The notes under the pieces: model-generated
Databases searched by the model: none
Seen by the model: only the letters and a program-made list of their open reading frames with translations
What the model was told of the DNA's origin: nothing
Position numbers and translations under genes: made by a program
DNA from: Clostridia bacterium
Lineage (GTDB): Bacteria; Bacillota; Clostridia; Christensenellales; Borkfalkiaceae
Direction: 5' to 3'
Length of the DNA stretch: 59,732 nt
Assembly (NCBI GenBank): GCA_017453165.1
Contig: JAFTKR010000018.1
Location: 1 to 59,732, forward strand
Shown here: one piece after another, positions 1 to 54,636 of the stretch
How the letters are laid out: each line of letters opens with the position of its first letter
Numbering within the stretch: the stretch's first letter is position 1

Positions 1-201
1 GACGGGAGTTTACTTAGTGGTAAACGAGCAAAGAAAAACGCAAGTTCGACGATTTATCACCAAGCCCGTTCGAAGCGAGTAAAACGCGGAGATACGAGCA
101 GTTTAAGGCGCGACGAGCACGGCGCAGGGAGCGTACTTAGCCGTACGCGACCAAAACGCGCGCAGTCGCAACGAAGAAATGCGACGTATATACGCGTTTT
201 A
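1..201 (-). repeat. Modular 3'-end repeat element, copy R1 (truncated by the window edge). It begins inside the TAA stop of the metallopeptidase gene.
   Basis: The reverse complement of 1..200 reads TAAAACGCGTATATACGTCGCATTTCTTCGTTGCGAC... It differs from 45685..45850 at 5 positions in ~165 nt. It contains the right-hand terminus GTATCTCCGCGTTTTA and the hairpin GTTTAC-N6-GTAAAC (8..27). Confidence 0.9.
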
Positions 202-930
202 CCTACGACGACGTCCGCCAAATATCGCCAATACCCACACCATAAACCGTAAGAAATACACGAGCGAAGTTGCTAACGACGCTACGTAAGTCATCGCCGC
301 CGCGCTTAATACGCGCTCCGCGCCGTCACTTTCTTGTTCCGTTAAGATGCCTTGTTCTAAAAGCATCTTCTTTGCGCGACGACTCGCGTCGAATTCGACG
401 GGCAAGGTGACGAGCATAAAGAGCGTCGAAAGTCCGTAGAAAGCAACGCCGACCATAGCAAGCGTATAACCCAAACTCGAACCCTGCCCCGTATAAACGA
501 ATAAATCTAAAATAAATCCAAGCAACACGAGAGGCATAGCAAGCCGTGAGCCGATATTGCAAACGGGTACGAGCGCCGTGCGGATTTTATAGGGGAGATA
601 CCCTTTCTTTTTTTGTAATACGTGTCCGATCTCGTGCGCGGCAACCGCTATCGAACCGATCGAATCGTCGCCGTACGTACTTTCCGACAAGTTCACCAAA
701 CCCTTGGTGGGGTGGTAGTGGTCGGTCAGTTCGCCACGAACCCGTTCGACGCGAATATCGTCCACGCCGTTCGCGCGAAGCAAACGCACCGCCGTATCGT
801 AACCCGTCATACGGGAATTTGCGCCTACGCTACGGTATGCGCGATAGGTAGTCTTTACTTTATTACTCGCCCAGCCCGAAAATACCGCGCAAAGCAAAAT
901 AAGTCCAAAAAATAAAAAATAATACTGCAT
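199..930 (-). CDS. Putative membrane zinc metallopeptidase (YugP / Zn-peptidase-2-like)
   Basis: ORF 199..996 was trimmed to the ATG at 930, which is preceded by GGAGAAAGAGA. It has an N-terminal TM helix, the HExxH motif AAHEIGHVLQ and C-terminal TM helices. Confidence 0.8.
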   Translation of the reverse strand: MQYYFLFFGLILLCAVFSGWASNKVKTTYRAYRSVGANSRMTGYDTAVRLLRANGVDDIRVERVRGELTDHYHPTKGLVNLSESTYGDDSIGSIAVAAHEIGHVLQKKKGYLPYKIRTALVPVCNIGSRLAMPLVLLGFILDLFVYTGQGSSLGYTLAMVGVAFYGLSTLFMLVTLPVEFDASRRAKKMLLEQGILTEQESDGAERVLSAAAMTYVASLATSLVYFLRFMVWVLAIFGGRRRR

Positions 931-1029
931 TCTCTTTCTCCAACCGGAAAATTTCTTACGCTTTATATATACGCAAGTTTTTCGGCTTTTAAGCAAAAAA
1001 TAGAAATTCTCGTACCTGCTACGCCTATT

Positions 1030-1833
1030 TTATAAATCCAACGCGAATTTATAAAGGTCGGATTTGGAAACGCCACGGTCTTTCGCCGCCTTTTTTAACG
1101 CCGTTTTCTTATCTAAACCCTGCGAAATATAATATTCGATATGCTCGGTTTCCGAAAGAGAATTTAACGGATTTTCCTTCTCTTTCGCGCCTTCAACAAC
1201 GAGTACGTACTCCCCGCGTTTTTCTCCCGTCAACCCTTCAGACAAAAGGAAAGGAACGCTTTCTTCATGGATCTTTGTAATCTCTCTTACCGCCACCGCT
1301 TGCCGTTCGCCAAAGACTTCGTACATTGCTTTTACGTCCTTATCAACGTCCTGCGGAGCGCAGTGGAACACCATCGTCAAATCCAACTCTTTATACTTTT
1401 CTAAAACCGCTTTTTTCTCGGACTGTTTTTCGGGTAAAAATCCGATAAACGCGAATCGATCGGCGTTCAACGCCGACAATACGAGCCCTGCGACGAACGC
1501 GCACGCGCCGGGAATTAGCGTGTACGGTTCTCCCGCTTCCCGTAGCGTCTTACAAACCACGTTCCCCGGATCGGAAACGACGGGCGTACCCGCGTCCGAT
1601 ACGACCGCAACCTTTTTTCCCGATCTACTCTCCGACAAAATTCTCGCTCCGGCTTCCGTTTCGTTAAATTTATGACAGGAAAATAACGGTTTTTTGATCT
1701 CGTACGCATTCAAAAGCTTCAACGTGTGCCGAGTATCTTCGCAAAAAATTACGTCCGCTTCCTTTAACGTTTCCAACGCTCGAAGCGTAATGTCCTTTAA
1801 ATTCCCGATTGGGGTGGCTACGAAATATACCAT
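1030..1833 (-). CDS. rsmI: 16S rRNA (cytidine1402-2'-O)-methyltransferase RsmI
   Basis: The N-terminus MVYFVATPIGNLKDITLRALETLKEADVIFCEDTRHT is the typical RsmI/tetrapyrrole-methylase-fold signature. The SD is AAGGAGAG. The neighbouring yabB-like gene matches the Bacillus arrangement. Confidence 0.9.
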   Translation of the reverse strand: MVYFVATPIGNLKDITLRALETLKEADVIFCEDTRHTLKLLNAYEIKKPLFSCHKFNETEAGARILSESRSGKKVAVVSDAGTPVVSDPGNVVCKTLREAGEPYTLIPGACAFVAGLVLSALNADRFAFIGFLPEKQSEKKAVLEKYKELDLTMVFHCAPQDVDKDVKAMYEVFGERQAVAVREITKIHEESVPFLLSEGLTGEKRGEYVLVVEGAKEKENPLNSLSETEHIEYYISQGLDKKTALKKAAKDRGVSKSDLYKFALDL

Positions 1834-1857
1834 TTTTCTCTCCTTGTTTTTTACGGG

Positions 1858-1873
1858 TGTTTATCGTGAAACA
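1858..1873. promoter_or_regulatory. parS-like imperfect palindrome TGTTTATCGTGAAACA
   Basis: It matches the Bacillota parS consensus TGTTNCACGTGAAACA at 14 of 16 positions. It is intergenic, between rsmI and the methyltransferase gene. Confidence 0.3.
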
Positions 1874-1891
1874 AACTCTTTTTTATCGAGC

Positions 1892-52870: not shown

Positions 52871-52906
52871 CTTGAAAAAATTTAATAGTTTCTGTATTTC
52901 TATCAT

Positions 52907-52936
52907 TTGACAAAACCGTCTTAATTGTGTTATACT
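52907..52936 (+). promoter_or_regulatory. Extended -10 promoter of the MATE gene
   Basis: TTGACA, 18 nt spacer ending in TGT, TATACT. Confidence 0.5.
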
Positions 52937-52965
52937 ACTCTCGTTTGTTTATAAATAGGAGTTTT

Positions 52966-54360
52966 ATGGTGGAAGAAGTACAGAAAGAAGAAAACGTCGC
53001 GGAAACGGTAGAAAAAGAGAATAAGATGGGGGTTATGCCCGTCAATAAACTTTTGATTCGCATGGGAGTTCCTATGATGATTTCCATGCTCGTGCAAGCG
53101 CTTTATAATATTGTAGACAGTATTTTCGTAGCGAAACTCGGACAGGACGCGTTCAACGCGGTGTCCTTTTCCTTTCCCGTACAAAATATTTTGATTGCGA
53201 TTGCGTCGGGTACGGGTGTGGGGATGAACGCGCTCATTTCCCGCGCGCTTGGTGAGAAGAACGGAGAAAAAGCAAACGGGTTTGCTATGCACGGCTTATT
53301 TTTAGCGATTTGCAGTTCCTTTTTTGTGATGTTTTTCGGGATTTTCGGCTCGGAAATATTCTTCCGTTCGCAAACGACGAACGAATCGATTATTCAAATG
53401 GGTACGGAATATACGAGTATTTGCTGTATCTTCTCGTTCGGGGTGTTGATGCAGGTAATCTTTGAACGACTTTTGCAAAGTACGGGCAAGACGACGCTCT
53501 CCATGATCACCCAAAGCGTCGGCGCGATTATCAATATCATTTTCGATCCGATTTTGATTTTCGGACTTTTGGGTTTTCCGAAAATGGGGGTAGCAGGTGC
53601 GGCGATTGCGACTGTTTTAGGACAAATCGTAGCTTGCGTGGTGGGATTGATTTTGAACGTGAAATATAACAGGGAATTGACCTTCCGTTTGAAGGGATTC
53701 CGTATCCAAGGGAGTATGATTAAGGAGATTTATCGGATTGGATTCCCGTCGATTATTATGCAGTCGATCGGATCGGTGATGACCTATATGATGAACCGTT
53801 TGCTTTCGGATATCGAACCGACGGAAACGGCGGCCGCGGTATTCGGCGCGTATTTTAAATTGCAAAGTTTCGTAATCATGCCCGTGTTTGGACTTGGCAA
53901 CGCCATGACGCCCATCGTTGCGTACAACCTTGGCGCAAGAAAGAAAGCCAGACTTTTACAAACCTATCGTTTGTCCGTTGGGTACGCGGTAATCATTATG
54001 ACGGTGGGGGCGATCCTGATGATCTTTGCGCCGAAACTCTTGCTGGGGCTTTTCTCCGCGACGGACGAAATGCTCGAAATGGGCGCGTCGGCGTTTAGAA
54101 TTATTGCCGTGACGCTTATACTTGCAAGTGTGGGAATTATGACGAGTAACCTGTTCCAAGCCTGTGGAAAGAGCGTCTATTCCCTGCTCATGAGCCTTTG
54201 TAGACAGCTTTTAGTGCTTATTCCCCTTGCCTATTTATTTGGTTACACGATCGGTTACAAAGCGGTATGGTTTGCAATCCCCTTAGCGGAAGTGGGTTCT
54301 CTTGCCGTTGCTGTTTTTGGTTATAAGGCGTTGAAAAAGAAGGTATTATCGACGTTGTAA
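52966..54360 (+). CDS. MATE-family efflux transporter
   Basis: The ATG at 52966 has SD AGGAG. It has 12 TM helices and an N-terminal MATE signature (PMMISMLVQALYNIVDSIFV). Confidence 0.88.
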   Translation: MVEEVQKEENVAETVEKENKMGVMPVNKLLIRMGVPMMISMLVQALYNIVDSIFVAKLGQDAFNAVSFSFPVQNILIAIASGTGVGMNALISRALGEKNGEKANGFAMHGLFLAICSSFFVMFFGIFGSEIFFRSQTTNESIIQMGTEYTSICCIFSFGVLMQVIFERLLQSTGKTTLSMITQSVGAIINIIFDPILIFGLLGFPKMGVAGAAIATVLGQIVACVVGLILNVKYNRELTFRLKGFRIQGSMIKEIYRIGFPSIIMQSIGSVMTYMMNRLLSDIEPTETAAAVFGAYFKLQSFVIMPVFGLGNAMTPIVAYNLGARKKARLLQTYRLSVGYAVIIMTVGAILMIFAPKLLLGLFSATDEMLEMGASAFRIIAVTLILASVGIMTSNLFQACGKSVYSLLMSLCRQLLVLIPLAYLFGYTIGYKAVWFAIPLAEVGSLAVAVFGYKALKKKVLSTL

Positions 54361-54366
54361 AAACAG

Positions 54367-54636
54367 TAAAACGCGTATATACTTCGCAAAAGTTCGTCGA
54401 ACTTACGTTTTCCCTAGCTCGTTTACGCATAGTAAACTCCCGTCGGGAAATCCGCGTTCTCCTGCTTTTGCTCGTATCTCCGCGTTTTACTTCGGGATAA
54501 CGACTTGGGGAAAATACTCGTCGCGCCTTGAACTGCTCGCATCTACGCGTTTTACCTGCGTTGAACGGCTTAGTGATAGGTTCGTCAAACTTGCGGTTTT
54601 CTCTTGCTCGTTTACGCATAGTACGGTAAGTCAAGC
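54367..54636 (+). repeat. Modular 3'-end repeat element, copy R6 (after the MATE gene)
   Basis: The head TAAAACGCGTATATAC starts 7 nt after the stop. The first unit, 54367..54489, ends GTATCTCCGCGTTTTA. A second partial unit ends GCATCTACGCGTTTTA. Confidence 0.9.

Follow-up and report, generated by a model that had tools for sequence, protein, structure and literature searches.

Genes and repeats of the window

The window, which is the whole stretch of DNA analysed here, is 59,732 nt from contig JAFTKR010000018.1 (GCA_017453165.1) of a Clostridia bacterium of the Borkfalkiaceae. It contains a dispersed palindromic repeat with a unit of ~122 nt, which is found at six loci (R1 to R6) at the 3' ends of genes, has the orientation of the gene in front of it and in some cases begins in the stop codon of that gene. 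According to Pfam the open reading frames (ORFs) of the window represent housekeeping genes only, and the genes flanking the elements are rnpA/yidD/yidC/jag, gidB, MatE, recG, dnaN and similar ones; a tRNA/tmRNA scan found none. The genes upstream of R1 to R6 code for a Zn-peptidase, a polysaccharide deacetylase, GidB, YidD, Jag and MatE, respectively, and all of them are co-oriented with the repeat. The original prediction, which was made from the letters of the sequence, stated that the copies are located at or near the stop codon of the upstream gene in the same orientation; this is confirmed, and the upstream genes are real as judged by Pfam.

Units were searched for in the window by repeat detection, by a blastn self-scan and by a covariance-model (CM) scan with the filters off. 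Repeat detection gave matches of 30-66 nt which interlink all six loci. The two scans found the six main loci at the positions predicted earlier, with a total of seven full units plus fragments, and nothing further (Table 1). R1 and R4 begin with the stop codon as their first 3 nt; in R3, R5 and R6 the stop codon is located 3-7 nt upstream of the unit, and in R2 it lies 8-10 nt inside. The pattern is far above chance, 0.01 matches to the 3'-arm motif being expected. Over the family the length of the unit is 100-125 bp. A tail-only copy which had also been proposed had to be given up; it is merely a small hairpin shared with R5 and contains no unit.

Table 1. Positions of the repeat units, their associated modules and the nearby terminators in the window.
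Feature	Position	Strand	Remarks
R1 full unit	79..201	(-)	CM 113.9 bits; begins with TAA (199-201), which ends the Zn-peptidase gene 199-996
R1 linker and beginning of partial second unit	1..78	(-)	Cut by the window edge; fragment 1-31 is model positions 48-78
R2 unit a	15528..15652	(-)	CM 125.9 bits; subfamily GATTGAAAT / TTTGAATC; polysaccharide deacetylase ORF ends inside the unit, TGA 15642-15644
R2 unit b	15388..15508	(-)	CM 91.5 bits; tandem to unit a, 140-nt period, direct repeat 91%; outer arm on the 5' side replaced
R2 tail	15317..15387	(-)	Small G+C hairpin, then GACCTTTTT
R3 full unit	41343..41465	(-)	CM 109.7 bits; begins 4 nt past the gidB TAA (41470-41472)
R3 second unit	41270..41342	(-)	Internal deletion; terminus GCATCTCCGCGTTTTAC
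R3 tail, module T1	41161..41269	(-)	97% identical to 45841-45938; reaches the start codon of the 405-aa gene 39926-41143
R4 full unit	45685..45807	(+)	CM 120.6 bits; yidD ends with the TAA at 45685-45687
R4 linker or partial unit	45808..45840	(+)	
R4 tail, module T1	45841..45957	(+)	Ends at the yidC start codon (45958)
R5 full unit	48327..48448	(+)	CM 106.8 bits; 5 nt past the jag stop (48319-48321)
R5 tail, module T2	48449..48497	(+)	Small hairpin CAAGGGAATTATTCCCTTG
Canonical bidirectional terminator	48534..48561		Downstream of R5
R6 full unit	54367..54490	(+)	CM 123.8 bits; 6 nt past the MatE stop (54358-54360)
R6 extension	54491..54636	(+)	Additional 3'-arm copy 54510-54555; partial unit 54578-54625
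Canonical terminator	54677..54706	(+)	Downstream of R6
T2 small hairpin without unit	25862..25916	(+)	30 nt in common with the R5 tail; not a main-family copy

The module T1 (~100 nt), seen in this window and in none of the other genomes, abuts the starts of unrelated genes, yidC and a 405-aa protein without Pfam match, and contains GTCATTGCGAGCGAAGCGTGGCAATCTC and a small AAGGG-N5-CCCTT hairpin. Another small dispersed hairpin, CAAGGGAAT-N-ATTCCCTTG, is found apart from the main unit at 48476-48494, 25873-25891 and L038:6419-6446, and is followed on one strand by GACCTTTT, which makes it terminator-like.

Outside the window the family was searched for with a 3'-arm motif in one genome per species, and at least 108 loci matched. 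The counts given below (57 elements, 58 clusters, 42 units) refer to members among the matches listed, and position statistics were calculated on the elements with a complete 5' end (n = 57). L-numbers such as L001 or L051 denote other loci or contigs which carry or lack the element.

Structure of the unit

Every unit folds as a single long imperfect hairpin of ~55 bp with an energy of -34 to -50 kcal/mol. The R4 unit gives -47.1 kcal/mol (z = -3.98) when folded as RNA and -24.8 kcal/mol (z = -2.5) when folded as DNA. The base of the hairpin is T-AAAA-CG...CG-TTTT-A, and nearly all copies have the termini TAAAACG...CGTTTTA with TA at both ends. Complementary termini bounding the unit, and two subfamilies which differ at both ends in a compensating way, had been predicted; these are as described, but the whole unit is a hairpin and the termini are just the base of the rod. 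The compensated apical hairpin of R5 (ATTTAC/GTAAAT, 48379-48395) is also found as predicted.

Covariation was analysed on two sets of units. The first, 37 units in a plain MAFFT alignment, was analysed by RNAalifold and gave a single hairpin with compensatory double changes at 19 of the 28 pairs. The second contained 42 units from more than 20 species-level genomes aligned with the CM, and here 96.9% of the predicted pair cells are standard pairs, compared to 73.9% for shuffles, none of which (0 of 500) comes up to the real alignment, and 35-47% for slid registers. Double changes are found at 22 of 28 pairs (257 cells), and all five helices contribute. A further helix, ATRCG / CGYAT, covaries as judged by eye, and compensated 1-nt indels occur between copies in both arms (CG vs ACG/GATT). 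The fold and covariation analysis suggested together with the original prediction thus gives strong covariation on both alignments. The data prove that arm complementarity is maintained by selection or by a copying mechanism. It should be noted that part of the apparent covariation could come from template-switch correction of quasi-palindromes; such a correction would not retain conserved mismatches.

Conserved mismatches are in fact present. The outer stem keeps two T.C mismatches and one A.C mismatch across copies, and there are invariant unpaired stretches, TC ahead of GCA and TGCTCG on the 3' arm. Because these unpaired positions are conserved the hairpin has a sequence polarity: scored with the CM, the sense strand reaches ~130 bits and the antisense strand ~30 bits.

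Fusion to the stop codon

Strict fusion to a TAA stop codon is the distinctive trait of the family. In 37 of the 57 elements (65%) a long co-oriented ORF has its in-frame stop in the TAA of TAAAACG, the stop overlaps or abuts the A-run of the element in 43, and in 52 (91%) it is located at most 9 nt from the element. The stop codon is TAA in 51 of 53 of the elements' genes, whereas the background frequency is 78%. The ordinary short terminators at the same loci have the same A-tract-CG...CG-T-tract design and start 1-41 nt past the stop, but only 1 of 37 overlaps or abuts the stop codon, against 43 of 57 for the elements (Fisher p = 2e-13). The possibility that closeness to the stop is a by-product of terminator location is ruled out by this comparison, and because the ordinary terminators of the same genomes almost never overlap the stop, the fusion is specific to the element. 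The YidD protein of relatives ends at the same residue (W-L-L/I-stop), so that R4 sits exactly on the native stop position.

The junctions themselves vary. The A-run differs in length (TAAAACG, TAAAAACG, TAAAAAACG), and some copies have the arrangement TAA-N(1-9)-TAAAACG. The base ahead of TAAAAC is G in 23 of 48 copies (48%), compared to 25% before background TAA stops (p = 0.0016). From their sequence the junctions are as expected if the element inserts into, or directly behind, a (G)TAA-type site and if deletions by microhomology later arise between its own TAA and the native one. A few copies are exceptions to the general arrangement: in L004:2206-2327 and its orthologue L160:400-520, and in L084:5288-5383, the unit is antisense and precedes, by 5-10 nt, the ribosome-binding site of a gene in divergent orientation. 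The arrangement is conserved between the two genomes of L004 and L160.

Downstream of the element a co-oriented gene usually follows; this is the case for 49 of 58 clusters (84%), with a median distance of 99 nt. A terminator had been predicted beyond R6, and a canonical one is present there; R5 lies within a 3' untranslated region (UTR), since its canonical terminator is also located downstream. Because co-oriented genes follow and these two repeats are trailed by terminators, most copies should be intercistronic or in 3' UTRs rather than terminators of transcription units, and judged by this gene context the element is probably part of the transcript, as a hairpin between cistrons or in the 3' UTR. 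A strict terminator finder which was applied downstream of the elements missed both known terminators of the window, and its output was not used.

Distribution, gain and loss

True members of the family are present at ~45 of the motif-matched loci, all within 22 metagenome-assembled genomes (MAGs), and these 22 other species-level MAGs contain at least ~60 units. The carriers are named Candidatus Scatosoma sp., 'Clostridia bacterium RGIG...' and 'Clostridiales bacterium SIG...', and come from human, chicken-type and ruminant gut. Among the matches listed, those in Paenibacillus, Bacillus and others have no unit; viral contigs gave one chance match and no family member, and in the metagenome collection the family was found on only 3 contigs. 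The enrichment at gene 3' ends and the fixed orientation, which were first seen in the window, hold in more than 20 other genomes. Rfam gave 0 matches at gathering threshold for the whole window, in agreement with the earlier remark that the sequence was not recognised as a named family, and R4 in E-value mode gave only a chance match (E = 2.1). Literature searches gave no named family of this description in Clostridia.

Arrays of up to four tandem units, 5'-truncated units and additional 3'-arm copies are common in many genomes, so the concatenated and shortened units which had been described from the window recur elsewhere. The arrays are direct tandem repeats, not inverted pairs. The near-identity of R1 and R4 was also seen correctly; it amounts to 97% over 166 nt (positions 37-202 are complementary to 45684-45849). 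Judged by this identity and by that of the R3 and R4 tails, also 97%, the copies show recent copying between unrelated loci. Split units were considered as a sign of an autonomous element; the single apparent case, in L069, is an assembly gap of Ns.

Orthologous sites were found by tblastn with the last 90 residues of the upstream genes. One site is empty in L051 (6480-6762), where ...ELKY-TAA is followed by 32 nt and the next gene, while in L089 and L096 the elements start at that TAA. In L096 the two genes of a rimM/trmD-like pair overlap (TTATGA), in L063 they are 35 nt apart, and in L051 ~300 nt of element lie between them. At another site there are units in L063 and L096, and in L051 only a 12-bp hairpin with a T-tract, the sequence of which is that of the outer stem of the unit; by parsimony it would be an internal deletion of a unit. 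Filled and empty sites, which had been proposed as a check on mobility, are thus found in related genomes, and presence/absence polymorphism is seen between species.

Relatives with a Jag identity of 69-75% have another hairpin repeat, nested and larger, GGCTWTRTCAC...GTGACATAGCC, at yidD-yidC and downstream of jag (L110:4446-4640; L112:8256-8445; L112:10885-10990; L007:772-905). Its inner part resembles the ~122-nt unit, and it begins 3-6 nt past the stop codon.

Comparison with known repeats

Bacterial miniature inverted-repeat transposable elements (MITEs) are described as non-coding, shorter than 200 bp and ending in TA on either side, with a long stem-loop closed by the 5' and 3' ends (PMC2229807). 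The element resembles this description in its size, TA termini, inverted ends, long stem-loop, lack of coding capacity, dispersed copies and presence/absence polymorphism. The definition further names a target-site duplication upon insertion and a cognate autonomous IS or transposase whose ends match. The original prediction compared it to BOX, BIME and Correia elements, which is apt; the closest in behaviour, and thus the better analogue, is ERIC of Yersinia. De Gregorio and colleagues are said to have found in 2005 that those Yersinia ERIC copies which overlap or abut stop codons favour one orientation, and reportedly proposed a ribosome-dependent folding model. The 127-bp ERIC consensus is not known to be related in sequence to the element, and the likeness is one of behaviour only, the hosts belonging to different phyla (Enterobacteria vs Clostridia). 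Stop-codon fusion is the rule in the element and concerns a subset in ERIC, and unlike ERIC the element has an outer stem which mimics the terminator design of its host. Common to ERIC/IRU (127 bp) and the element (~125 bp) are an imperfect palindrome over the whole length, TA termini, an intergenic location, co-transcription with the flanking genes (predicted for the element) and an effect for which orientation matters (PMC2229807).

Correia/NEMIS is a small TA-ended inverted-repeat element which is co-transcribed, and its RNA hairpin is a substrate for RNase III and changes mRNA levels (PMC2229807). In contrast to the element it has 24-bp terminal repeats, an IHF site, promoter elements, no strict association with stop codons and no full-length rod covarying throughout. 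BOX (modular A-B-C) and RUP (TA-targeted, IS630-Spn1) of Streptococcus pneumoniae are likewise dispersed small repeats with stable RNA structures in a Gram-positive host (PMC3049150, PMC2229807). Their modules and sequences are unrelated to the element, RUP has a candidate transposase, and neither has been reported to be fused to stops. REP/BIME, like the element, are extragenic palindromes at gene 3' ends which form mosaic arrays, and they stabilise the upstream mRNA; REPs located at most 15 nt from a stop codon stall ribosomes and affect translation (PMC12306157). They differ in being 20-40 nt long with a GTAG or CGTC tag, in forming inverted pairs and in being RAYT-linked, whereas the element has 122 nt and the head (G)TAAAACG.

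The attC sites of integrons (VCR of Vibrio cholerae, 123-126 nt) are imperfect palindromes of the same length located right after the stop of an ORF and co-oriented with it, with a conserved structure, a polarity given by unpaired bases and AAC...GTT cores. They conserve structure rather than sequence, whereas the sequence of the element is conserved over the whole unit; the element is flanked by dispersed core genes, forms no promoterless cassette array and has no integrase in the window. The cores GTAAAAC / GTTTTAC of the element agree with RYYYAAC / GTTRRRY of attC at 5 of 7 positions, and only AAC/GTT fit. The family is new and unnamed, yet it falls within the known class of small bacterial repeats (MITE/ERIC/REP-like).

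Models for the element

The model we prefer, with a probability of roughly 0.55, is that the repeats are a lineage-specific, non-autonomous, palindromic MITE-like family located at gene ends of Candidatus Scatosoma and allied uncultured gut Clostridia. The model proposes that the element inserts at a (G)TA(A) target, that insertions elsewhere are lost, and that small deletions between the native TAA and the TAA of the element would bring it to the stop position. The upstream gene and the element would be transcribed together, and a ribosome terminating at the shared TAA would occlude the 5' arm; as long as the terminating ribosome covers this arm the outer stem could not fold, so that stem formation and the termination of translation would exclude each other. 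Once folded, the rod might be a barrier to 3' exonucleases, or it might be cut by RNase III or RNase E/G, and in this way the stability or expression of the flanking cistrons could be uncoupled, as described for REP, ERIC and Correia. An RNase E/G family gene is located at 9307-10848 (-) in the window, which is relevant to any model with the repeats as RNA processing sites. The two readings offered originally, a mobile element and an intercistronic or 3'-UTR RNA module, are both compatible with the data; the pairing is of the Watson-Crick type, and an action as RNA is not established by it.

Several observations weigh against this model. There is no transposase, RAYT, integrase or tyrosine recombinase among the ~56 ORFs of the window in the Pfam scan, in agreement with the earlier remark that transposases and REP-associated transposases are lacking there; a cognate transposase was thus not found in the window. 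A simple TA duplication at TAA is disfavoured because the ...TTTTAA which it predicts is not seen; the 3' GTTTTA is followed by C in 54 of 63 copies (86%). The terminal TA belongs to the palindrome, and the species with empty and filled sites are too diverged for the 3' junction to be aligned. Exact-protein look-ups with Jag, YidD and GidB found no closely related empty allele, and the strain-level contigs all end inside the repeat. Several sites are occupied by diverged copies in several species; because of this the elements must be long-lived, and some of the apparent spread may be vertical descent with gene conversion. Finally, compensation is almost wholly of the Watson-Crick type and the wobble cells (G-U 26 vs A-C 18) have no significant asymmetry, and the predicted fold is better for the antisense than for the sense strand (-45 vs -37 kcal/mol). 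The better antisense fold arises because the conserved mismatches of the sense strand are pyrimidine-pyrimidine, so the energy difference was discarded as a pointer to the functional strand. On the basis of the sequences, hairpins acting as RNA or as DNA fit equally well.

A different model hypothesizes that the hairpin is a DNA substrate: folded in the single-stranded state, the element would be moved or recombined on the template of the lagging strand, in the manner of REP/RAYT, an IS200/IS605 derivative or attC. The fixed orientation would then follow the direction of replication, and co-orientation with genes would be a by-product of the genes being leading-strand genes. The Watson-Crick compensation, with rare and symmetric wobble, speaks for this model, as do the asymmetric T.C and A.C mismatches, which polarise the hairpin like the extrahelical bases in attC or IS608 ends, and the excess of G before TAAAAC, an indication of a GTAA-type flank. 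In its length (122-125 nt) and its AAC...GTT cores the unit is reminiscent of the VCR attC sites of Vibrio. The direction of replication also has to be considered here. The GC skew changes sign at ~42-44 kb, adjoining dnaN (from about -0.04 to +0.15), and the G+C content falls to 36-38% at 42000-45000; because of the skew flip and the drop in G+C the replication origin is probably located at 42000-45000. The gene order around the flip is gidB(-), ypsA, dnaN, rpmH, rnpA, yidD, yidC, jag, and neither in the window nor on three related contigs was a dnaA found beside dnaN. R1-R3 on the left arm are (-) and R4-R6 on the right arm are (+), and all six follow leading-strand genes, whereas ~40% of the genes in the window are lagging-strand genes; the local skew, read along the element, is positive at 37 of 41 other loci. 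However, at L034 and L068 the skew is negative in the orientation of the element, which is still co-oriented with the gene, and replication polarity leaves the placement on the stop codon itself unexplained. Moreover, no Y1/HUH transposase was among the window ORFs, the neighbours are core housekeeping genes and not cassette arrays, the REP hallmarks are absent from the unit, and the R''/R' cores match the attC consensus as poorly as stated above. The direction of genes and that of replication are confounded, and because of this the model retains weight; we consider it unlikely, although it deserves to be taken seriously.

A more far-reaching proposal sees in the element a portable module of 'stop codon plus hairpin', which would home to gene ends by means of the stop or terminator context, for instance by strand-specific insertion as single-stranded DNA 3' of a GTAA-type site; the host would use its hairpin, which starts within the stop codon, to tune translation termination, ribosome rescue and cistron stability for at least a tenth of the genes. 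This is quite improbable, and it is mentioned as a speculation.

Still somewhat more doubtful is a model in which the unit is a cis-acting RNA evolved by the host, i.e., a terminator, attenuator or insulator, which is not mobile, owes its spread to duplication and gene conversion alone and is retained for 3'-end regulation. The outer stem AAAACG...CGTTTT has the design of the ordinary terminators of the lineage, the 12-bp hairpin and T-tract of L051 match the outer stem of the L063 and L096 units, several sites are filled in several species, and the internal loop sequences are conserved together with strong structural covariation. On the other hand, the T-tract after the unit consists of only 4 T, R5 and R6 are trailed by canonical terminators, and 84% of the clusters precede a co-oriented gene at ~100 nt; because such genes follow, efficient termination at the units would break operons such as rnpA-yidD-yidC. 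Near-identical copies behind unrelated genes and filled and empty sites are not expected from this model either, the tandem and truncated arrays resemble decay of an element and not a tuned regulator, and G-U pairs are not enriched.

That the repeats encode a peptide, in the frame past the TAA (open for 16-70 codons in some copies) or in the antisense ORFs of 89-138 aa which run through R2, R3, R4 and R6, and across R6 were called as a 135-aa antisense 'gene' on the public contig L001, is hardly credible, since the compensated 1-nt indels shift every frame between copies and rule out coding potential, substitutions track base-pairing and not codon position, and the antisense ORFs run on into the antisense of the upstream genes.

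Use of the family and minor observations

Dozens of species, hundreds of copies and strong covariation provide a data set on why small repeats gather at gene ends in one direction, and the same data set bears on whether such a hairpin acts as RNA or DNA. As the hairpin starts within the stop codon, the interplay between ribosome termination and folding is directly testable. Public contigs of the window organism end inside repeats (both ends of L001; ends of L167-L170), and because of this the family can be said to fragment the assemblies of the lineage. It also yields spurious antisense gene calls, and the annotation pipelines for these MAGs would gain from a model of the family.

Apart from the repeats, the octamer GCAGGTAC occurs 8 times in the window where ~2 are expected, at 2913, 22238, 38839 and 50638 (+) and at 31342, 16962, 6587 and 1019 (-). 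It is mostly found within GGGGGCAGGTACGAG, which is followed directly by ATG, CTG or TTG, e.g., at the start of the gene 22249-23544, and it is perhaps a conserved motif of translation initiation or regulation.

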